DNA of 64,000 bases, taken from contig CAWDJJ010000003.1 of NCBI GenBank assembly GCA_963802635.1, positions 636,553-700,552 on the forward strand, given 5' to 3'. Numbering within the stretch: the stretch's first letter is position 1; every line of letters begins with the position of its first letter. The notes under the pieces are model-generated. The model worked only from the letters and a program-made list of their open reading frames with translations. It was not told the origin of the DNA and made no database searches. Positions 1 to 31,162 of this stretch are shown one piece after another. The DNA comes from an uncultured Chloroflexia bacterium (GTDB lineage: Bacteria; Chloroflexota; Ktedonobacteria; Ktedonobacterales; Ktedonobacteraceae). Both the position numbers and the translations under genes were made by a program.

Positions 1-97
1 TTAAGCAAACAAAGAAAATAGTGCTCATCTTAAACACATTCTCAGAGTCCAGCCAAAAACAGGCCCATCCAGCCGGGTCGGAACACACGGGGGAAAC

Positions 98-9811: not shown

Positions 9812-11209
9812 ATGACCAACGCCCACCAGAAATATCCGAATCGTTTAAGACGAACAATCAAGCAATCAGGCTTTACCATTGAGCAGATAGCAGAAGAAAC
9901 AGAAATCCCGCTACGGACGTTATTTGACTATTGCGCCGGGCGTGTGCCTATCCCTAGAAATCGCCTGGAGGTGCTCGCAAGTGCGCTGGGTTATCCAACC
10001 GAATATTTGGTACCGACCTATCCTGACCGTGATACTATCGAACAACCAATTCGTGATTTACTTGTGTGGGTAGATAGCGAAATATCAGTAGCTAGTAAGC
10101 AAGCGAAAGATATTACGGATCAACTGCGTCCTGTCTCCAGGAGTATAATTGCGGAGGAGCAAGAGCTAGGAGCTAATCTTGATATGGATACCTTACGTCG
10201 CCAGCTGCTTAAACAACTGTTAGAAGCTGGAGGTCTTGTTATCCTCTCGCCAGCAGAAATAGAGCGTGTTGATGCACAGCCAAGATATCCTATATCTATT
10301 TCAATCGAAGAGTTCTTATCTCACTGTGAAGCAAGCGTACAAACTTGTTGGCAACTCTACTATAATGGGGGAAGTTTGCCGGAACTTCATAAGAAAACGA
10401 CTACGTACATTACGCAACTAGACCCTCTGGTAAACACATCTGTGCATCAAGCAACTGCAGCTAGCCTGGCCTCACAAACCTACCAACTTGCATCTATGGT
10501 TTCCCTGGAAAATGAGGACTATAGCGCTGCACTATCACAAGCTAACCATGCAGTAGAATACGCGCAACTCACACACGATCCAAATATGGAAGTTGCTGCA
10601 TTGATGCGAAAAGTCACTGTCCTTTTTTACCATAAGCGTTACAGGCAGGCAAGTAGTGTACTTCAACTAACTCTCCAACACATTCATCATGTTAGTCCAC
10701 TTATGCAAGCTCGTATCTACTCTGAACTGGCAGCAGATACCGCCTCAAATGAACAGATGCAAGATATTGTCCGTCATATTAAGATGGGAGTTGACACTTG
10801 CCCACAAGATGCCGCAAAAGATCCTGCTTTTAACTATACACACACCTCTCCATATTTGATTCATTTTAATGAGGGAATAGCATATACAAATCTAAGCTTA
10901 TATAAAGATGCCTGGAGGGCGCTAGAACAAGCTGAAAAATACGTACTAAATGCGTCAAGTACGCGGCGCATGGAATTACTTACGTATCAAGTTTCAGTTG
11001 CTACAAATCTTGGTGATCTAGATTTAAGTAGTGAAAAAATGAAGGAAACCATCGTACTGGGTAAAGTTCTCAACTCAAATTTGTGGTTTAGTGATATTGA
11101 AACCATCTACGAAAAACTACAATGCAAGTGGAGAGGTGAACCAACAATAGAGGATTTAGGAGAGATGATAAAATATGAAGGATACTACAAAGATGCAGAT
11201 AAGAAATAA
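9812..11209 (+). CDS. XRE-family HTH transcriptional regulator with C-terminal TPR-like domain
   Basis: 'FTIEQIAEETEIPLRTLFDYCAG' HTH; long helical C-terminal region; RBS gaaggag upstream. Confidence 0.55.
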   Translation: MTNAHQKYPNRLRRTIKQSGFTIEQIAEETEIPLRTLFDYCAGRVPIPRNRLEVLASALGYPTEYLVPTYPDRDTIEQPIRDLLVWVDSEISVASKQAKDITDQLRPVSRSIIAEEQELGANLDMDTLRRQLLKQLLEAGGLVILSPAEIERVDAQPRYPISISIEEFLSHCEASVQTCWQLYYNGGSLPELHKKTTTYITQLDPLVNTSVHQATAASLASQTYQLASMVSLENEDYSAALSQANHAVEYAQLTHDPNMEVAALMRKVTVLFYHKRYRQASSVLQLTLQHIHHVSPLMQARIYSELAADTASNEQMQDIVRHIKMGVDTCPQDAAKDPAFNYTHTSPYLIHFNEGIAYTNLSLYKDAWRALEQAEKYVLNASSTRRMELLTYQVSVATNLGDLDLSSEKMKETIVLGKVLNSNLWFSDIETIYEKLQCKWRGEPTIEDLGEMIKYEGYYKDADKK

Positions 11210-11462
11210 GCAAAATAAGCAAAATAAGCAGAGCAATTGTTTTATAGTTGCTTCGAAGGATACCAGTTTTATAGTGTATAGGGTACTTGCAGATGACATC
11301 TCCACCCATAGGCCATTAAAAACAGAACAGGTAGAGACGCACATCTATGCAGAGAGGTGGTTAGCGTTGAATATATGCGAACAACTAGAAAAAGAGTTAC
11401 ACCGTCTCAATAAGTATGGGTTCACCGATTTGGAGATTGTCCTCCGACGGCATATAAAATAG
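11175..11462 (+). CDS. doubtful small ORF (NKQ-repeat N-terminus)
   Basis: 95 aa; overlaps the end of the regulator gene and reads through the 9-bp tandem repeat; no clear RBS. Confidence 0.2.
   Translation: MKDTTKMQIRNKQNKQNKQSNCFIVASKDTSFIVYRVLADDISTHRPLKTEQVETHIYAERWLALNICEQLEKELHRLNKYGFTDLEIVLRRHIK
11207..11236 (+). repeat. 9-bp tandem repeat (gcaaaataa)x3 creating three in-frame TAA stops
   Basis: aag aaa TAA gca aaa TAA gca aaa TAA gcagag. Confidence 0.7.
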
Positions 11463-11505
11463 CATAATGACAGCCAGCAGTTGTTAAGAGAGAAGGAGGT
11501 AAATC

Positions 11506-11829
11506 ATGGCAGAATTTATCGAGGTGCGTACAACGATAGATAGTAGAGAAGGTGCAAGAAAGATTGCTGATGCGGTCGTGGAAAGCCGCCTTGCGGCATG
11601 TGCTCAGATATCAGGGCCAATTACCAGCGTCTATTGGTGGAAAGGCCAAAGAGAAGTCGCGCAAGAATGGATATGTACAGTAAAGACAAGAGGTGATCTC
11701 TATGTCAATCTCGAAAAGGCCATTCGTGATGCACATTCTTATGAAGAACCTGAGATCATCGCTACTGCGGTTACTGCCGGAAGTCAAGGATACCTTGATT
11801 GGATTGCGAATGAAACGGTAAAAAAGTAG
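11506..11829 (+). CDS. cutA: divalent-cation tolerance protein CutA
   Basis: 107 aa; 'RLAACAQISGPITSVYWWKG...EEPEIIA' matches the CutA1 fold signature; RBS aggagg. Confidence 0.8.
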   Translation: MAEFIEVRTTIDSREGARKIADAVVESRLAACAQISGPITSVYWWKGQREVAQEWICTVKTRGDLYVNLEKAIRDAHSYEEPEIIATAVTAGSQGYLDWIANETVKK

Positions 11830-11856
11830 CAGATTACATACGAAGGAGTAGCTAAC

Positions 11857-11967
11857 ATGCAAAAGAAGAAAACATTCAGCACCATGGAGATCATCCTGGT
11901 CGGTGTCCTGGTCGGCTCACTTATCCTCTCGTTTTTGCAGACCCGGCGTGAGGAACAGGAGAAGTAA
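11857..11967 (+). CDS. small membrane peptide (36 aa), not in the ORF track
   Basis: MQKKKTFSTMEIILVGVLVGSLILSFLQTRREEQEK; RBS gaaggag 8 nt upstream; one TM helix; hairpin follows. Confidence 0.3.
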   Translation: MQKKKTFSTMEIILVGVLVGSLILSFLQTRREEQEK

Positions 11968-11977
11968 TTAAGTAAGA

Positions 11978-12004
11978 GAGCGTCACTTTGAGCCGGTGAC
12001 GCTC
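11978..12004. terminator. hairpin (gagcgtcac-N9-gtgacgctc) between convergent genes
   Basis: 9-bp stem; weak T-tract. Confidence 0.35.
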
Positions 12005-22265: not shown

Positions 22266-22604
22266 TTATGTATCTTTTATATTATCTTTATACGATTCTG
22301 ACTTGACGTTTATGAGACAATAACCAAAAGGAATAATGGGCTGTAAAAATCTGGTAGCTCTCCACTTCAATCGCTCAATAAAAGCCGTATTGAACTCGGT
22401 ACATCCTTTTGTCTTCAAGAGAAGCTCTTTTGCTTTCTCACTTGTGCCCTTTGTCAGTTTTCTTGTGATCTCCACGACCCGCTTTTCCTTGCTATGCTTG
22501 ATGACCGTGGTAATGCAGAGATACAGCAGGTCTCTGGACGCTGGCTTTTTTTCAAGCTCCCCCTCCTTTTTCACCAGTTCGTGGAGAGCTACCGAAGTCG
22601 GCAC
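22266..22604 (-). pseudogene. transposase C-terminal remnant (DDE 'ER' region)
   Basis: 'NTAFIERLKWRATRFLQPIIPFGYCLINVKS' resembles IS1-like transposase C-termini; no N-terminal catalytic part. Confidence 0.3.
22300..22356. repeat. 57-bp IS-end-like sequence, copy A
   Basis: gacttgacgtttatgagacaataaccaaaaggaataatgggctgtaaaaatctggta, about 90% identical to copy B. Confidence 0.7.
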
Positions 22605-22620
22605 TCCGCTTTTTTAGCTG

Positions 22621-23595
22621 CTACTTTGCCGCTGGTGACAGCAACCTTAACTCCACCCCTGATTGGGGTCCGACGGTGGATTTCCTTCTGTCGGCGGCGG
22701 CGCTCCCCCTGGCTGCGGCCCGTAGTTCGGATGCAGCGGCACTCCCCCTGGCTGCGGCCCGTAGTTCGGATACTGCCCATAGTTCGGATGCTGCTGCACT
22801 CCCCCTTGCTGTTGCACGTAGTTCGGATGCTGCTGCACTCCCCCTTGCAATATCTGCTTTTGGTCGTAATTCATATTTTGCCTCCTCTGCACTTCTAGCT
22901 GATACGGCGCGTTGTGCTGATTTTGCTGCAATTGTATATTTTGATTTTTTTTGCATCTTTCGTAGCTCTCGTAACGCTTGGAGCGCTGCTTTTTGCTCCG
23001 GCGTTCCCCTGTGCCCTATGGCTCTGATTTGCTGGGAAAGCCTAGCCTCCTCAGGATGTTCCCTCTTCATCCGCTCTACGCCTCCTTTCCCTGAGTAGGA
23101 GGACATGTACAAGGCTTCAGCCGCCAGGTGCGCTTCCGCCAGTTGGATACCATCGATCTGTATAGGCAAAACTGCTGGCCTACTTCGTAGCTCTCGTAAC
23201 GCTTGGAACGCTGCTTTTTGCTCCGGTGTTCCCCTGTGCCCTACGGCTTTGAGTTCCTGGAAACGCCTGGCCTCCACAGGATAGTCCCTCTCCATCTGAT
23301 CTACGCCTCCTTTCCCTGAGTAGGAGACGTTGTACAAGTTTTCAGCGAGCAGATGATCTTCCGTTAGTTGGACATTTGTGATGTCTATTTTTGGTCTTCT
23401 CCCCGATCCAGAGGAAGTCTGGCCCGGTGCAGGGCCTGATGGGAGGTCTCCGGACCTCACCGCTTGCGTCACATCCAAACCACCAGCAGAACTCCACCCA
23501 GCGTTCGGCGAGGTTTCTCCCTCTACGTATTCTGGACCCCAATATGGGTTCCACGGCAGCGATTGGTTCCCCGGCGAGTCGCCGCGTCCTGACAT
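22621..23595 (-). CDS. hypothetical protein with internal duplications (frame uncertain in 3' repeats)
   Basis: RBS aaaggag before ATG 23595; two ~75-aa repeats ('YSGKGGV...HRGTPEQKAA(F/L)QALRELR'); an alternative frame gives a PNYGPQPGG tail. Confidence 0.35.
   Translation of the reverse strand: MSGRGDSPGNQSLPWNPYWGPEYVEGETSPNAGWSSAGGLDVTQAVRSGDLPSGPAPGQTSSGSGRRPKIDITNVQLTEDHLLAENLYNVSYSGKGGVDQMERDYPVEARRFQELKAVGHRGTPEQKAAFQALRELRSRPAVLPIQIDGIQLAEAHLAAEALYMSSYSGKGGVERMKREHPEEARLSQQIRAIGHRGTPEQKAALQALRELRKMQKKSKYTIAAKSAQRAVSARSAEEAKYELRPKADIARGSAAASELRATARGSAAASELWAVSELRAAARGSAAASELRAAARGSAAADRRKSTVGPQSGVELRLLSPAAK
22700..22860. repeat. about 40-bp imperfect tandem repeats (about 4 units)
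   Basis: ctccccctggctgcggcccgtagttcggatgc(a/t)gc... repeated. Confidence 0.65.
22961..23410. repeat. 225-bp tandem duplication (2 units)
   Basis: units begin cgtagctctcgtaacgcttgga at 22961 and 23186. Confidence 0.7.
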
Positions 23596-23609
23596 CTTGT
23601 GCTCCTTTC

Positions 23610-24185
23610 TCAATGACCTTGTTCATCCTGAGTGGTGTTCCACCTGATGGTCTCCTTTTCCGATCCTCCTCTTCTTCTCATATTATACCAGCTCTTTCTT
23701 GCATCAACGGCTGCTGAGCGCTTCTTCTCCGAAAACTGACCCTCCCTTGCCCATTTTCTCCCACAACTGCTCTTCGGCATCTCCGCCACGCACCCGCCTC
23801 GTATCATCTCTTCTCCGGCGACAGGAATGCGGCTCTTCTGGGCCGGTCCCCTTGAGGTCGGCACGCACGCGCACCAAGCGCAAAGAGATGGACTCTTTTT
23901 TCGTCGCTGTCCAGCCCAGGATAATGCCAGACTTGCCACACCATGGTGGATACCCCCATATCCGTAGTCTTGGCTGCCCCATCGGTCGCCCAAGCGCTCC
24001 ACCCAATGCTTCGCAGAGTCGTAGGACCATCCATCAGCCGCATCATCCGTCGGCAACACCCTGGATGCTACCGGAGCCACTGGCTCCTCGATCACGCCTG
24101 CCGTGGCTGGCTCCTCGGCAACCCTATGCTTGGAGCCAGGAACATCGCTGGCTTCCTCCTCTGGCTCCTGGTGATGCTTCACCAT
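23610..24185 (-). CDS. hypothetical protein (possibly decayed; 3' half may be UTR)
   Basis: acidic plausible N-terminal half; C-terminal half is purine-rich basic sequence that looks like the 5'UTR/RBS of the downstream gene; alternative frames also open. Confidence 0.25.
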   Translation of the reverse strand: MVKHHQEPEEEASDVPGSKHRVAEEPATAGVIEEPVAPVASRVLPTDDAADGWSYDSAKHWVERLGDRWGSQDYGYGGIHHGVASLALSWAGQRRKKSPSLCAWCACVPTSRGPAQKSRIPVAGEEMIRGGCVAEMPKSSCGRKWAREGQFSEKKRSAAVDARKSWYNMRRRGGSEKETIRWNTTQDEQGH

Positions 24186-25681: not shown

Positions 25682-26503
25682 ATGCAAAAGGCACCATACC
25701 GCTTTATCAACACAGGAGTACAAGACGCAGCCCTCAATATGGCTATCGATGAAGCTATACTCCGTCACCACCTCAAAGACGCAGTTCCACCAACTTTGCG
25801 GGTATTCCGCTGGTCGCAACCGGCGATCTCGCTGGGACGATTTCAAAACGTCAAGCGCGAAATCGCCGTCGATGTCTGCCAACAACAAGGCATCGCGCTT
25901 GTACGCCGTCCCACTGGAGGAAGAGCTGTCTATCACCGAGACGAATTTACCTACAGCATCGTCATTAGCAAGCACAATGGCATCCCCTCAGGAGTCGTCG
26001 CCGCATACGCCTACCTCTGCCAGGGATTGCTTGTCGCGCTTGCCAGCCTGGGAATACAGGCCGAAATCAGTGATGAACATGTAAGTAAAAATCCCTCAGC
26101 AGCTTGCTTCGCATCATCAACGCAGGCTGACGTGATCAGCAATAATTTTAAGCTGGTAGGTAGCGCTCAGGTATGGAAGCAAGATGGACTGCTCCAACAA
26201 GGATCATTGCCGCTAGATGATTGCTCAGCAGAATTCTTTAGCATGCTGCGCTTTGCTAGCACAGAAGAGCGCCAGGCGGCCCTGAGCCTCTACCAGCAGA
26301 AAACCGCCCCATTACATGCCTTTGCCCCGACAGCCACATGGGATACAGCAGCTCAGGCATTTCAAAATGGCTTTAGCACACTTCTGCAAAGGCAATTTGC
26401 GCCGGGCGAATTGAGTACATCAGAGTGGGAACTGGCCCGGCAACTTGTGGAGCAGAAATACAGCGAGCTAACGTGGAGTAAAGAACATATCACATTAGCC
26501 TGA
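25682..26503 (+). CDS. lipoate-protein ligase / octanoyltransferase family protein (LplA/LipM-like catalytic domain)
   Basis: 'RRPTGGRAVYHRDEFTYSIV' BPL_LplA_LipB motif; RBS aaggaacaag. Confidence 0.7.
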   Translation: MQKAPYRFINTGVQDAALNMAIDEAILRHHLKDAVPPTLRVFRWSQPAISLGRFQNVKREIAVDVCQQQGIALVRRPTGGRAVYHRDEFTYSIVISKHNGIPSGVVAAYAYLCQGLLVALASLGIQAEISDEHVSKNPSAACFASSTQADVISNNFKLVGSAQVWKQDGLLQQGSLPLDDCSAEFFSMLRFASTEERQAALSLYQQKTAPLHAFAPTATWDTAAQAFQNGFSTLLQRQFAPGELSTSEWELARQLVEQKYSELTWSKEHITLA

Positions 26504-26697
26504 TGTGCTTATACCCACATTGCATGCAGGCAATCAGTGCGGTACAATAGGCCCGATAGAGATACATCATAGCAGCAGAAGAGGGTGAAAGCAATGGATA
26601 TAAGAAAATCTATCACGCTCTCCCTGCGAAACGTCTTTTGCGGTCCTGATAAGCAAGGAAGCAGCATTTATAGCATTGAGTTAAGGAGTATCTGGGC

Positions 26698-27329
26698 GTG
26701 AGCATATCTGTCGAAATGGCACGAAGTATCCTGGAAGCCAGCAAACAACGTGCCAGAGAACTACGCAGCCCCGTAAGCATCGCCATCGTAGACGCAGGAG
26801 GGCATCTGGTCCTTTTCGAGCGCATGATGGCCCCCTATGGTTGGGCAACAGGCAATATCAGCCTTGCCAAAGCAAGTACAGTGTGATGTTTAACCAGTCC
26901 ACAGACGCAGTTGCGCAATGGGGTGCGGGTATCCCAGGCTTCGCCGCCAGTCTGGCGGCGATGACCAACGGACAATTCATCATGGCGGCTGGCGGCTGGC
27001 CCATTCGCGTCAACGGTATCACCATTGGCGGTATTGGAGTAAGTGGAGGCAACGCACCTGGCCGCGATGATGAGATCGCATGTGCAGGACTTGCCGTGGT
27101 AGAAGCATTGAGCGCACCCATCCCAACACAACCAGCACAAGTAGCTGTCAGAGCAGGCTATGAGCAGAACAGTGCATCACTCGCGGGCAATAACGATAGG
27201 GTTTCACGCCCGCAGGATCTTCCCCCCATGACCCAGCACTTGCCAGTAGATAATAATGATCCTTACAGTGCTTTTGGTATGCCTACCTCTAGCCAATCAA
27301 ACGAGAACCGTTCAGGAGACCAACTATGA
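26698..27329 (+). pseudogene. DUF336 (GlcG/HbpS-like) protein with apparent frameshift near 26880
   Basis: GTG start with RBS aaggag; 'PVSIAIVDAGGHLVLFERM...ISLAKASTV*' then continues in another frame 'MFNQSTDAV...GGWPIRVNGITIGGIGVSGG'. Confidence 0.45.
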
Positions 27330-28126
27330 GTCAGGAATATAGCACAACACCAAGCAAAAAGATACGGCGTACACGCTCACAGCGCAATCGTCCCGTACTC
27401 GTCACCGACGAGGAAAACAAAACACTTGCACAGACTAGCCCCGCAGTAGACACAACGGCAGTAGAAACGCCGCCAGCAGTAGAGGAAGATCCTGTAGAAG
27501 TAGTTGCAGAAACACCAAAACGGCAGTCGCGACTCCCCAATTTCTTCTCACGCGTTGATAAAAGCGAGCAAGAGACAAACCCTAACCAGGAAGATGTTGT
27601 GCAAGCACGCCTCGCACGAGCCACGCGAAAGCAAGCTGGCAATAATGCAGCAGCCGTAGCAAAGGAAGAGACAGCGACCAGTGATGGAAAAGTCACAAAG
27701 GCCAGGGCTACGCAACCGCCGAAGCTGTTTAAGTCCCGCCATTTTCTCGGCTTTGCAATTTACCTGCTCGGCGCGGAATTCCTCTTGCCCTACGAGACCA
27801 ACGCTCTCGCCAAGTTGGGATTAAACAAACCGTTATTCACCCTCCCACTTTTTGGCGCGACGGCCACGGTTAGTACATCATTTCTGTTCAATATTTTTAC
27901 GCTGATCCTCTTACTGTATATTCTGGTCAAAATGGACCTGCTGCCAAGCAGCCTTGCTGGAAGCGGTGCCGCGCAGAGGAACGCTAAAGCCACGCAGAGC
28001 AGGAATAATCAGCAAGAGCCAGGAGTGAAACAAACTCCACCGTCAACGAGACAGGGCGTACAGGGCACAGACGATGATCTCTACCAGGAGTATCGCGCCA
28101 ACCAGAGACGCGACAAGAAACGCTAA
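27326..28126 (+). CDS. hypothetical membrane protein
   Basis: 266 aa; disordered basic N-terminus, two or three TM helices, Gln/Arg-rich tail. Confidence 0.45.
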   Translation: MSQEYSTTPSKKIRRTRSQRNRPVLVTDEENKTLAQTSPAVDTTAVETPPAVEEDPVEVVAETPKRQSRLPNFFSRVDKSEQETNPNQEDVVQARLARATRKQAGNNAAAVAKEETATSDGKVTKARATQPPKLFKSRHFLGFAIYLLGAEFLLPYETNALAKLGLNKPLFTLPLFGATATVSTSFLFNIFTLILLLYILVKMDLLPSSLAGSGAAQRNAKATQSRNNQQEPGVKQTPPSTRQGVQGTDDDLYQEYRANQRRDKKR

Positions 28127-28146
28127 TGCCCGATAACCATTCCCTC

Positions 28147-28176
28147 TTGACAGAGGTAGCATCAACCCTTTATAAT
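28147..28176 (+). promoter_or_regulatory. sigma-70-type promoter (TTGACA-18 bp-TATAAT)
   Basis: ttgaca at 28147-52, tataat at 28171-76; about 250 bp upstream of DAHP synthase. Confidence 0.45.
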
Positions 28177-28231
28177 TACTCACACAGGCTGGAGTAAGGC
28201 TCCAGTAATACGACACTTATGGAAAATATCA

Positions 28232-28306
28232 ATGCTCAGCGACCAGACAGACAAACAAATTAGTTTCCAATATAGCTTTTATTATTGGTTTAGCCCTCCA
28301 GCATGA
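28232..28306 (+). CDS. aromatic-rich leader peptide (MLSDQTDKQISFQYSFYYWFSPPA)
   Basis: 24-aa ORF between the promoter and an intrinsic terminator; 7 of 9 consecutive codons are Phe/Tyr/Trp; weak SD gga. Confidence 0.4.
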   Translation: MLSDQTDKQISFQYSFYYWFSPPA

Positions 28307-28356
28307 TGGTGGGCCCTTTGGGCTGAGCAAAATTTGACCACCAGCGTGCTGGAGAG

Positions 28357-28388
28357 AGCAGAGGACAAATCCTCTGCTTTTTTGTTTC
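28357..28388 (+). terminator. leader (attenuator) terminator agcagagg-acaaat-cctctgct + TTTTTTGTTT
   Basis: 8-bp stem and T-run inside the 5' leader of the DAHP synthase gene, before its RBS. Confidence 0.5.
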
Positions 28389-28423
28389 CCCAAATTGAGT
28401 CAACAGTAGAGAGGATGACGTTC

Positions 28424-29482
28424 ATGATTATCACACTTCACAACCAGGCGACCAGCGACGAACGAGCGCAATTGATGACACTACTCTGCCGCATCACCGG
28501 CAGTCAATGTCCAATCACCACGACTGTCATAAGCGAGCGCGAAGTAATTGCGCTCGATAGCAACCTGATTAATAGCCAGGCACAAAGCGCATTAGAAGCG
28601 TTAAACGCCGTTGATAGCATCCTTAGCATCAAAACTGCCTACCAGCTAGTCAGCCGCACGTTCCAGGCAAGCACAAGTAGCATTGCCGTAGGTAATGCGC
28701 GCGACTGTAATCCGGTGACTATTGGCAGTGGGGCACCTGTGATGATGGCAGGACCTTGCGCCGTCGAGAGCCGGGAACAGTTGCTTGCCACTGCACGCGC
28801 CGTCAAACAGGCTGGCGCGCAAATCTTGCGCGGAGGAGCCTTCAAACCTCGTACATCGCCCTACCAGTTCCAGGGACTCGGCGTTGAAGGGCTGCACATG
28901 CTGGCGGAAGCACGCGAGATTACGGGACTACCCGTGATTACCGAAGTCATGGAACCCGCTATGGTAGAGCCTGTAGCGCAGTTCGCGGACATATTACAGA
29001 TCGGTTCGCGCAATATGCAGAATTTCCCGCTGCTATCGACGGTAGGTAGACATAGTAAGCAGCTTCCAGTGCTACTCAAGCGTGGATTGTCAGCCACCAT
29101 CGACGAATGGTTATTGGCGGCTGAATACATTGCCGCGGCAGGCAACCCTAACATCATCCTCTGCGAACGCGGCATACGCAGCTATGATCCCCAGACGCGC
29201 AATGTGCTTGACCTGACCTGTGTGCCATTGCTCCACGAATTAACCCACTTGCCGATTATTGTTGACCCAAGCCATGCTACTGGTCGCCGCGAATTAGTGC
29301 CAGCCATGTCGCGCGCCAGCATTGCCGCTGAAGCCGATGGCCTGATCATCGAGACCCATCTTGATCCCAACACAGCCTTATGCGACGGGCGACAATCGAT
29401 TACGCCCGAGCAACTAGCAAAAATCGTGCGCGAAACCAGGCTTTTCACACGCATGATGCACGAGGAGACACGTGTGGCATAA
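28424..29482 (+). CDS. aroG: 3-deoxy-7-phosphoheptulonate (DAHP) synthase, type I-beta with N-terminal ferredoxin-like regulatory domain
   Basis: collinear with Thermotoga-type DAH7PS: 'MIITLH' N-domain, 'AGPCAVES', '[19 protein letters not shown]', 'KRG', 'ILCERGIR', 'VDPSH'; the track TTG start at 28334 is rejected. Confidence 0.8.
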
Positions 29483-29605
29483 GCGCTGTAAGATTCCCAG
29501 GCAACAGCTATCGACTCACAACACACACTTATGCTATACTCTGCGTAGGTAGAAAGAGTATTTTCTATGACGGTGGGGGATAGACCAAGGCTTTGAGGAG
29601 ACACT

Positions 29606-30179
29606 ATGCCAACACGAATTATTATTGCCGATGACGAAGCCATTCAGCGCATGGACTTAAAAGATGTGCTGACCAAGCAGGGATACCTCGTAATTGGGGA
29701 GGCGGGCGACGGCCAAAGTGCCATCAATCTGGCCCGCGAACTGCGACCGGATCTGCTTATTATGGACATTCGTATGCCCGATATGGATGGCATTGCCGCC
29801 GCCGAAACACTTACGCAGGAAAAGATCGCACCAGTATTGTTGCTCACGGCCTTCGGGGACCAGCAACTCGTGGAACGAGCAAAAGAGGCAGGCGTGGTTA
29901 ATTACATTGTGAAACCACTGCGTGAGAGCGAAGTTACGCCTGCTATCGAAGTTACACTGGCTCGCTACAGCGAGTTCCGCGCTCTGGAGGAAGAGAATCG
30001 CAGCCTCTCAGATGAAACTCGAGACACGCAAAGTCGTCGAACGAGCAAAAGGACTCTTGATGGAAAAGCAAGGACTCAGCGAACAGGAAGCTTTCCGTAA
30101 GATCCAGAAGGCAAGCATGAACAATCGTAAGTCTATGCGCGAGGTAGCTGAAGCTATCTTGTTGACGAACGAAATGTAA
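29606..30179 (+). CDS. two-component response regulator with ANTAR RNA-binding output domain (apparent +1 frameshift between REC and ANTAR)
   Basis: REC 'IIIADDE...DLLIMDIRMPDMDG...LLLTAF'; ANTAR 'LETRKVVERAKGLLMEKQGLSEQEAFRKIQKASMNNRKSMREVAEAIL' lies in the next frame from about 30030. Confidence 0.55.
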
Positions 30180-30238
30180 CCGTAAAAGGATAGGGCAAAT
30201 GGAGCAACGCTGCTACACACTGCCCTCATCTAGTAAAG

Positions 30239-31162
30239 ATGGAAATACTCATGTCATTGACAACGAGCATAGCACAAACTGTTGTTGTCGTAGGCATTCG
30301 TTTTCGTCCTGCCGGTCGTATCTATTACTTTGACCCTGTAGAGCACACGTTTACGACAGGCCAGTACGTCATTGTGGAAACCGTGCGTGGGGTTGAGGCA
30401 GGGCGCGTGGTGATTGCCTCTAAGAAGATCGCAGAGAGTGATCTGAGTGATCCACTGAAACCCGTCTTGCATTTGGCAACCGAAGACGAATTGCGCATGA
30501 TGCTTGCATACAAAAGTAAAGAGAAAGAAGCGCTGACGCGCTGCCACGAACGTATCGTGCAACATCGTCTGCCCATGAAGCTCGTGGAGGCTGAATATAC
30601 GTTTGATGGTAGTCGGCTGACTTTTTACTTTACAGCGGATGAACGCGTTGATTTCCGCGCACTCGTACGTGATCTGGCCGCGACATTTCGCACACGCATC
30701 GAATTGCGCCAGATCGGCGCACGAGATCAAGCGAAGCTGCAGGGGGGCGTTGGCCCATGTGGCAAAACTCTCTGTTGTAGTTCCTGGATCACTGACTTTG
30801 GTATTGTTTCGATCAAGATGGCGAAAGAGCAAGGACTACCGCTCAATCCTTCAAAAATATCTGGTGTCTGTGGCCGTCTGATGTGTTGTCTCTCGTACGA
30901 AAACGACAACTACATTCAGGCCAAAAGACAGATGCCACAGATCGGAACCTTTCTCGACACACTCAGTGGTCCCGGTAAAGTAGTCTCGGTGAATGTGCCG
31001 CAAAATTCAGTCGAAGTCATGCTAGAGAGCGGTGTCACCATTCACATCCCTGTTGATATACCAGAAGAGCAGCCACGCAGTTGCGGTAGCGGCGGCTGTG
31101 GGAGCTGTGGAAACACCAGGAGCAGCGGCGGCTGTGGTTCTTGTAACATCAAAAAGAAATAA
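30239..31162 (+). CDS. ricT: PSP1-domain protein RicT (YaaT)
   Basis: collinear with B. subtilis YaaT: 'VVGIRF..AGRIYYFDP', 'VIVETVRGVE', 'MKLVEAEYTFDGSRLTFYFTADERVDFRALVRDLAATFRTRIELRQIG', 'GPCGKTLCC', 'CGRLMCCLSYEN'; Cys/Gly-rich tail. Confidence 0.8.
   Translation: MEILMSLTTSIAQTVVVVGIRFRPAGRIYYFDPVEHTFTTGQYVIVETVRGVEAGRVVIASKKIAESDLSDPLKPVLHLATEDELRMMLAYKSKEKEALTRCHERIVQHRLPMKLVEAEYTFDGSRLTFYFTADERVDFRALVRDLAATFRTRIELRQIGARDQAKLQGGVGPCGKTLCCSSWITDFGIVSIKMAKEQGLPLNPSKISGVCGRLMCCLSYENDNYIQAKRQMPQIGTFLDTLSGPGKVVSVNVPQNSVEVMLESGVTIHIPVDIPEEQPRSCGSGGCGSCGNTRSSGGCGSCNIKKK

Follow-up and report, generated by a model that had tools for sequence, protein, structure and literature searches.

A DAHP synthase gene and the leader region upstream of it were analysed in a stretch of 64,000 nucleotides (nt) from an uncultured bacterium (contig CAWDJJ010000003.1, positions 636,553–700,552), called the window below. 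The source organism belongs to the Ktedonobacteria (Chloroflexota), with the nearest named orthologues in Tengunoibacter and Dictyobacter (76% identity). The leader consists of a promoter, a small open reading frame rich in aromatic codons (ORF1), a hairpin (B) that holds the ORF1 stop, a second mini-ORF that overlaps this stop (ORF2), and an intrinsic terminator (T), after which the DAHP synthase gene begins (Table 1). A first-pass annotation had read the region as a candidate ribosome-mediated attenuator sensing phenylalanine, tyrosine and tryptophan. The evidence presented here is comparative and computational throughout, and the sequences compared share kinship and are therefore not independent of each other.

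Table 1. Features of the leader region and the DAHP synthase gene, in window coordinates.
Feature	Position	Strand	Basis
Sigma-70-type promoter, TTGACA-18-TATAAT	28147–28176	+	TTGACA 28147–28152, TATAAT 28171–28176; 12/12 consensus
Stem-loop in the 5' untranslated region	28188–28206	+	Fold; sequence not conserved, hairpin with different sequence at other loci
GGA, weak Shine-Dalgarno-like motif 8 nt upstream of the ORF1 AUG	28221–28223	+	GGA enrichment in leaders
ORF1, leader peptide MLSDQTDKQISFQYSFYYWFSPPA and stop	28232–28306	+	Translation; ...FYYWFSPPA before the stop conserved in Ktedonobacteria
Segment A, UGCUCAG (start codon and codons 2–3)	28233–28239	+	A:A' 98% paired, three compensated pairs
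Regulatory codon run F-Q-Y-S-F-Y-Y-W-F (proposed ribosome stall sites)	28265–28291	+	Codons 12–20
Hairpin B, 5' strand (lower helix 28296–28305, upper 28307–28312), with ORF1 stop	28296–28312	+	RNAalifold, covariation
ORF2, MMVGPLG and stop	28303–28326	+	AUG overlaps ORF1 stop (AUGA); UGA in A', at the apex of B
Apical hairpin C, GCCC-UUU-GGGC	28313–28323	+	Covariation
Segment A', CUGAGCA, pairs with A and crosses hairpin B	28323–28329	+	Pair counts
A-rich linker, A' to B'	28330–28338	+	A run almost unchanged across alignment A2
Hairpin B, 3' strand (B')	28339–28354	+	RNAalifold, pair counts
Intrinsic terminator T, AGCAGAGGA, loop CAAA, UCCUCUGCU, U6-G-U3	28357–28387	+	Fold, scan, conservation; stem 28357–28365/28370–28378, U6-G-U3 28378–28387
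Shine-Dalgarno sequence GAGAGGA of the DAHP synthase gene	28408–28414	+	Sequence
Type I-beta DAHP synthase with N-terminal regulatory domain	28424–29482	+	PF00793; PDB 1RZM/3PG9; orthologues

In the product of the DAHP synthase gene, PF00793 covered residues 97–336, and the orthologues carry the name 3-deoxy-7-phosphoheptulonate synthase. The DAHP synthase of Thermotoga maritima (1RZM/3PG9) aligned to residues 27–339 (E = 4e-84). The protein thus has the DAHP_synth_1 barrel and the N-terminal extension of about 90 amino acids, homologous to the T. maritima enzyme, that mark the type I-beta class. Because the alignment begins at residue 27, the Thermotoga-type ferredoxin-like N-terminal domain was confirmed, and the enzyme that had been named downstream of the terminator was correctly described. 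The ATG at 28424, which follows the Shine-Dalgarno sequence, is more likely to be the start codon than position 28425.

The canonical promoter claimed for 28147–28176 is present; it was the only 12/12 match to the consensus within 26000–31000, and transcription is predicted to start near 28183. The pattern TTGACN-16..19-TANNNT preceded all of the 60 Ktedonobacteria-type leaders; a promoter was found for 23 of the 31 leaders of other types.

A genome scan with an alignment of Ktedonobacteria DAHP synthases yielded 80 loci, chosen by protein homology. At 75 of them the unit of promoter, aromatic ORF, hairpin and terminator lay upstream of the DAHP synthase gene, in Ktedonobacteria, other Chloroflexota (Limnocylindrales-like) and Dormibacterota, and at three loci it stood upstream of a tyrA-like gene that precedes the DAHP synthase gene. 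Almost all of the 80 loci carried a small ORF with an aromatic run and a stop about 90–200 nt upstream of the gene start. The leader peptide of Ktedonobacteria ended in ...(S)FYYWFSPPA. High-GC Limnocylindrales-like Chloroflexota and Dormibacterota had a short type of 11–12 residues (for example MNRTFYFRTPA), and a third type, M..FYYFSGGTxELLxTQ, preceded Chloroflexota type I-alpha DAHP synthases (L141, L177, L207–209). Five loci lacked the exact terminator motif. One of these lies on a truncated contig that shows only the U-tract end of the motif (L028), two are second DAHP synthase copies of about 60% identity from genomes already among the 80 loci (L061, L062), and two had no aromatic leader (L070, L072). 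Upstream of the two second copies, which are from Ktedonobacteria, neither an aromatic leader nor the terminator motif was seen.

When metagenomes were scanned for the terminator string, 120 loci were obtained; an aromatic leader was present in about 45, and the remainder were unrelated gene-end terminators. The leader unit was also found upstream of an aroK-aroB fusion (L139), of the chorismate mutase gene aroH (L182) and of type I-alpha DAHP synthase genes, and in many genomes it sits 36–200 nt upstream of aromatic-pathway genes. Closer type I-alpha relatives had the same terminator stem; relatives at 70–75% identity, including Rokubacteria and Methylomirabilota, were examined for variant terminators and had no leader at all. 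No covariance model of an Rfam leader or riboswitch (Trp_leader, Phe_leader, Leu/phe leader, T-box and others) reached its gathering score in the window; Rfam gave chance-level matches only (E > 1) on 28050–28500 and no leader match on eight related loci. In several high-GC Chloroflexota and Dormibacterota loci (L068, L074, L079 and L080), two tRNA genes of 73 and 89 nt lay divergently upstream of the short-type leaders, at 100–700 nt on the opposite strand.

Seven of the nine codons in the regulatory run of ORF1 are aromatic (three Phe, three Tyr and one Trp), exactly as had been reported, and an aromatic-clustered ORF was conserved in more than 90 leaders. Its retention in relatives, which had been suggested as a check, was found at the amino acid level, through synonymous and aromatic-to-aromatic substitutions. 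Among Ktedonobacteria leaders UAU and UAC alternated, as did UUU and UUC, and Tyr, Trp and Phe replaced one another while the run remained aromatic; the short-type variants (FYF, FFFY, WYFY, FYWF) were likewise always aromatic. UUU made up 91% of the Phe codons in leaders versus 55% in window genes, and U-ending aromatic codons were favoured by leaders even in high-GC genomes. Chorismate mutase forms the branch to Phe and Tyr, and the AroH leader (FSFYYFSPPA) has no Trp codon. As for translation signals, GGA occurred at −17 to −6 from the AUG in 31 of 45 leaders (in 29 of them 7–9 nt from the AUG) versus 5 of 45 for a control window. In most of the non-Ktedonobacteria-type leaders with a promoter, the short type among them, the −10 hexamer ends 7–13 nt upstream of the AUG, so that their ORF1 is effectively leaderless. 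These comparisons support selection on the coded residues of the aromatic run, with ORF1 apparently read as codons.

RNA structure was investigated in an alignment of 48 Ktedonobacteria leaders (A2) by RNAalifold and pair counting. The RNAalifold consensus contained hairpin B, the apical hairpin C and the terminator. In the helices of A2, 98.6% of cells were paired versus 33–52% when the partners were slid, and nine pairs showed compensatory changes (four in the lower helix of hairpin B, two in hairpin C and three in A:A'), a number that no shuffle attained. In hairpin B, 28296–28305 pairs with 28345–28354, and the helix is continued by 28307–28312 with 28339–28344; the pairing of ccctccagca (28294–28303) with tgctggag (28347–28354), which had been pointed out before, proved real and belongs to this hairpin. 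Some compensated changes in B also affect the peptide (GCA to ACA with UGC to UGU; CCA to CCG with UGG to CGG). For hairpin C, pair 131/135 was CG in 31, UA in eight and AU in three leaders. Since A:A' crosses hairpin B, the topology is that of a pseudoknot, whose loop would be formed by the A-rich linker. The leader start was also shaped by this helix: the change of L to H was accompanied by A to U, and because the MHS, MFS and MLN variants were all compensated in A:A', the MLS start of Ktedonobacteria peptides is an RNA constraint.

The position of hairpin B was conserved in relation to both of its neighbours. In most leaders 4–5 nt separate the last aromatic codon from its base; four codons past the last aromatic codon, the 5' strand of B holds the ORF1 stop, and 0–3 nt lie between the end of the 3' strand and the terminator stem AGCAGAGG. 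With this placement, as in a classical attenuator, a ribosome stalled on the run would spare hairpin B and a ribosome at the stop would cover its 5' arm. The sequences of hairpin B were unrelated among the three leader types. In one high-GC subgroup (L069, L073, L074, L076 and L077), G(U/C)CCCGG, the start of the 5' strand of B, recurred 10–20 nt downstream of the U tract and could pair with B' in read-through transcripts.

The ORF1 stop was nearly always AUGA, and the overlapping AUG opens ORF2, which has 6–8 codons and ends in the apical loop of hairpin B. ORF2 was present in 47 of 56 Ktedonobacteria-type and 22 of 23 short-type leaders, versus 8.5 and 1.6 predicted from shuffles. Other frames over the region had almost no stops, and the apical loops of hairpin B had only UAG or UGA in common. 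In several leaders that lack AUGA, ORF1 itself runs on to the apex of B (Thermogemmatispora, L020, L128 and the SGGT type); therefore the conserved feature is a translation end point at the top of B. A third ORF from an AUG or GUG in B' through the terminator was rejected, as its frame and stop position were inconsistent and 13 copies stopped before T. ORF1 shares its reading frame with the DAHP synthase gene, and no stop lies between the ORF1 UGA and the ATG of the gene (28304–28424, plus strand), so that read-through of the UGA would fuse the leader peptide to the enzyme. The shared frame looks accidental because linker lengths differ in other genomes.

The terminator with an 8-bp stem that had been proposed was also recovered, at 28357–28387, with 8–9 bp and the tract U6-G-U3. 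It was missed by a simple scanner because the stem extends into the U run; a stricter scan found four perfect terminators in the 64 kb versus 0.05 in shuffles. The motif GCAGAGG-N3-14-CCTCTGCTTTT was exact in 75 of the 80 loci, and the 8-bp stem AGCAGAGG/CCUCUGCU was identical in the three leader types and in at least two phyla. For this invariance only the 80 loci chosen by protein homology count as evidence, the terminator string itself having served to select the metagenome loci. No covariation was seen for the terminator in A2, because its stem is constant; among the aligned short-type leaders, covariation was confined to the ninth, apical pair (UA in nine, CG in five), which confirms T as a hairpin. 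The loops were 3–14 nt long and variable in sequence. A generic repeat, or a lineage-specific requirement for terminators, was rejected as an explanation of the stem, because other terminators in the window have different stems. One type I-alpha DAHP synthase leader (L209:820–860) keeps the invariant stem and has a degenerate U tract (CUUCUUGCAUUU), perhaps as a natural variant whose termination is weakened.

Together, the comparisons support a conserved unit of leader peptide and terminator with the signatures of aromatic-codon sensing. As in classical attenuators, a short ORF with clustered end-product codons is preceded by a promoter and by Shine-Dalgarno or leaderless signals, and an intrinsic terminator lies between the leader ORF and the structural gene at 75 of 80 loci. 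That the element is an attenuator therefore appears likely on sequence grounds. Its best full explanation, which we also consider probable, is a ribosome-mediated attenuator that would sense charged tRNA-Phe, tRNA-Tyr and tRNA-Trp and control read-through from a strong promoter into the DAHP synthase gene. The reading given in the first-pass annotation thus stood as regards a conserved sensing unit, which occurs at other aromatic genes too; its usual counterpart, an antiterminator structure competing with T, was not found.

The attenuator could work as follows. When aromatic aminoacyl-tRNAs are plentiful, the ribosome would finish ORF1, reinitiate at AUGA and translate ORF2 to the apex, where it would keep hairpin B melted while the polymerase makes T; with B' single-stranded, T would form and transcription would stop. 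When an aromatic amino acid is scarce, the ribosome would stall on the run, its leading edge reaching the still intact base of B; the hairpin would persist and the polymerase would read through. The stalled state is assigned to read-through because physiology requires it, and the steric step that follows is inferred because T has no RNA alternative. Hairpin B, clamped to the stalled ribosome and flush against T, would block the lower pairs of T in the RNA exit channel of the polymerase, since these pairs would need ribosome, hairpin B and polymerase all at one junction; a single-stranded B' would remove this constraint. Such a block by B and the stalled ribosome, acting as a non-overlapping antiterminator, is speculative and is put forward tentatively. 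It would explain the linker of 0–3 nt, the placement of the codons and the relay through ORF2. A probable role of A:A' in Ktedonobacteria is to restrict leader translation to a single ribosome and to make B more stable. In broader terms, the element might represent a new attenuation mechanism with no RNA strand common to the "on" and "off" states. Hairpin B would bridge a ribosome stalled about 70 nt upstream to the polymerase, through steric block or through sequence-specific recognition of AGCAGAGG/CCUCUGCU by ribosome, polymerase or a factor, and the AUGA-ORF2 relay would switch it off; this we regard as doubtful.

Several observations weigh against the attenuator and its steric step. Mutually exclusive antiterminator and terminator folds, for which a check had been suggested, were not found: hairpin B does not overlap T, and no antiterminator helix shares bases with T as it does in a classical attenuator. 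For 93 leaders, partition functions (nested folding at equilibrium) were computed in five states: free of ribosomes, or with one ribosome placed on the first aromatic codon, on the last one, at the stop of ORF1 or at the apex of B. In each of these states T had a mean helix probability of 0.986–0.997, and because it stayed near 0.99 throughout, T should always form by secondary structure alone. Duplexes of the 5' and 3' arms of T (T5 and T3) with all upstream segments were no better than shuffled controls and were not conserved between leader types. The steric model offers no reason for an 8-bp stem that stays the same across phyla, about eight leaders have neither AUGA nor an extended ORF1, and the steric step has no direct precedent known to us, the nearest idea being ribosome proximity of the pyrBI type.

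Other folds were equally negative. Nascent transcripts with ribosome-masked segments, folded before T3 emerges, formed no structure competing with T, and neither the 5' flank of B paired with the linker plus T5, as an extension of B into T, nor hairpin B paired with T5 and T3 stood out, the latter against shuffled controls. The candidate antiterminators CCUUUG:CAGAGG (hairpin C with T5) and UGCU:AGCA (segment A with T5) were weak and not conserved. Pairing of a tRNA acceptor end with UGGUGG in the manner of a T-box was rejected, UGGUGG being absent from high-GC leaders and Rfam giving no match, and so was mimicry of a tRNA anticodon arm by T, since the terminator loops vary and Rfam again gave no match. 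No tRNA genes were found in the 64-kb window. The pairing noted in the first-pass annotation, hairpin B, is therefore real, but it is neither a usual antiterminator nor an anti-antiterminator.

The main rival explanation is factor-dependent attenuation, in which a trans-acting partner (a protein, an rRNA or tRNA segment, or the polymerase with NusA/NusG) reads the invariant AGCAGAGG/CCUCUGCU hairpin and sets the efficiency of termination, leader translation only modulating access. It would account for a stem that is identical in 75 of 80 genomes, at least two phyla and three leader types with unrelated B, and that varies only by covariation of its ninth, apical pair, while other terminators in the window have different stems and T has no RNA partner within the leader. 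It is nevertheless unlikely: no candidate factor was identified, and the loop of T varies freely in length and sequence. The response regulator encoded next to the DAHP synthase gene, which has REC and ANTAR domains, keeps synteny in Ktedonobacteria alone, and the loops are not of the kind that ANTAR proteins target. An ANTAR-regulated terminator, with tandem hexaloop hairpins (A1/G4) of which the second overlaps T, was rejected, as no dual hexaloop motif was seen and the loops of T vary from 3 to 14 nt.

A classical attenuator with an overlooked antiterminator is quite improbable. On stalling of the ribosome, T5 would then be sequestered by, for instance, a pseudoknot, a tertiary contact or a co-transcriptional fold in a kinetic trap. 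The geometry of codons, stop and hairpin B fits the 2:3 helix of trp-type attenuators, Ktedonobacteria leaders do form the crossing helix A:A', and pseudoknots are beyond what ViennaRNA can model. Against this, whichever upstream segment was paired with T5 or T3, loops among them, the duplex energy equalled that of shuffled controls in both leader types, and CCUUUG:CAGAGG was not kept where hairpin C covaries and was absent from high-GC leaders.

Most leaders of the Ktedonobacteria and short types end in Pro-Ala-UGA, which would suit an arrest of the TnaC type, with the aromatic run, x-P-A and UGA halting the ribosome on the stop codon at high levels of free aromatic amino acids. However, the codons of P-A-stop are the 5' strand of hairpin B, and their changes from A to T and from A to V are compensated in B'; the stop position shifts in Thermogemmatispora, L013, L020, L071, L080 and L128; the third leader type ends in ...FSGGTxELLxTQ without P-A; and the length and N-terminus of the peptide vary. 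An arrest peptide has a fixed stop and a sequence independent of RNA pairing, and as the C-terminal codons covary with B', this explanation was rejected as very improbable. It is scarcely credible that the unit is not regulatory and the small ORF incidental, the hairpin and T ending an upstream transcript or making a small RNA, for although hairpins like T serve as ordinary gene-end terminators elsewhere and attenuator-derived small RNAs such as rnTrpL are known (PMC7968998), the unit has its own conserved promoter, its distance of 36–200 nt from aromatic-pathway genes in many genomes leaves no room for a second one, and the aromatic run is selected on coded residues.

The gene directly downstream of the DAHP synthase gene (29606–30179, plus strand) encodes a PdtaR-like response regulator with REC and ANTAR domains. 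Comparison with the intact orthologue in L001 showed that it is split into two frames by one extra T near 30013, which is either a sequencing error or the mark of a pseudogene. It is a conserved neighbour of the DAHP synthase gene in about 50 of the 80 loci and is 85–95% identical, above the conservation of the DAHP synthase. Elsewhere in the window, long overlapping ORFs with repeated AAARGSAAASELR-like units on both strands of 22494–23613 point to a tandem-repeat coding region, and the stretch 10001–12000, with a G+C content of 0.42 versus about 0.50 elsewhere, may be foreign DNA or non-coding.

If the attenuator reading is correct, leader-peptide attenuation would extend to Chloroflexota and Dormibacterota, with a regulon-wide cis element for aromatic biosynthesis (type I-alpha and I-beta DAHP synthases, aroK-aroB, aroH and tyrA) that would add transcriptional control to the allosteric control expected from the N-terminal domain of the enzyme. 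It would be a natural case without the textbook overlapping helices, yet with its geometry, coupled mini-ORF and invariant T kept over very large distances. Its explanation would show how the position of a ribosome reaches the RNA polymerase, and would yield a compact, portable sensor of aromatic amino acids.

The closest known case is the aroR-aroF leader of Corynebacterium. According to two papers (PMC11802643 and PMC4046766, citing Neshat et al. 2014), a leader with Phe-Tyr-Phe lies upstream of a DAHP synthase operon of C. glutamicum, and read-through rises when the ribosome stalls under Phe limitation. In both elements a DAHP synthase gene is thus preceded by a leader peptide in which aromatic residues follow one another directly. 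As judged from these descriptions, aroR-aroF differs in belonging to Actinobacteria, in preceding a different DAHP synthase gene and in being described as a conventional attenuator, whereas the element in the window has an invariant T and codons for Phe, Tyr and Trp alike, couples ORF2 to ORF1 and lacks an antiterminator that overlaps T. The earlier suggestion of novelty therefore holds only in part: leader control of a DAHP synthase had already been described for aroR-aroF, and a literature search for attenuators in Chloroflexi or Ktedonobacter, or for leader control of a type I-beta DAHP synthase, found none in the papers searched.

With trpL, pheL and pheM of Escherichia coli the element shares tandem regulatory codons in a short ORF, a stop that follows them within a few codons and falls in the 5' arm of a hairpin, and an intrinsic terminator ahead of the gene. 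The 2:3 antiterminator of those leaders shares bases with the 3:4 terminator, whereas hairpin B and T share none. In E. coli pyrBI and pyrE, proximity of ribosome and polymerase prevents termination without an alternative RNA structure, as is proposed here. The pyrBI and pyrE leader ORFs run through the terminator and the signal is UTP-dependent pausing of the polymerase; in the present leader, translation ends about 30–50 nt before T, and hairpin B would have to bridge the gap. Like tnaC of the tnaC-tnaA operon, the leader is short and ends in Pro-x and UGA, and in tnaC whether downstream genes are transcribed depends on where the ribosome stands at the stop. TnaC, however, responds to free Trp, acts on Rho-dependent termination and depends on a fixed peptide, whereas P-A-stop here is constrained by an RNA helix and varies in position. 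The element resembles an attenuator of the trp/phe type in its working but lacks the overlapping helices of that type, and it adds a second mini-ORF, a pseudoknot at the start codon and an invariant T.

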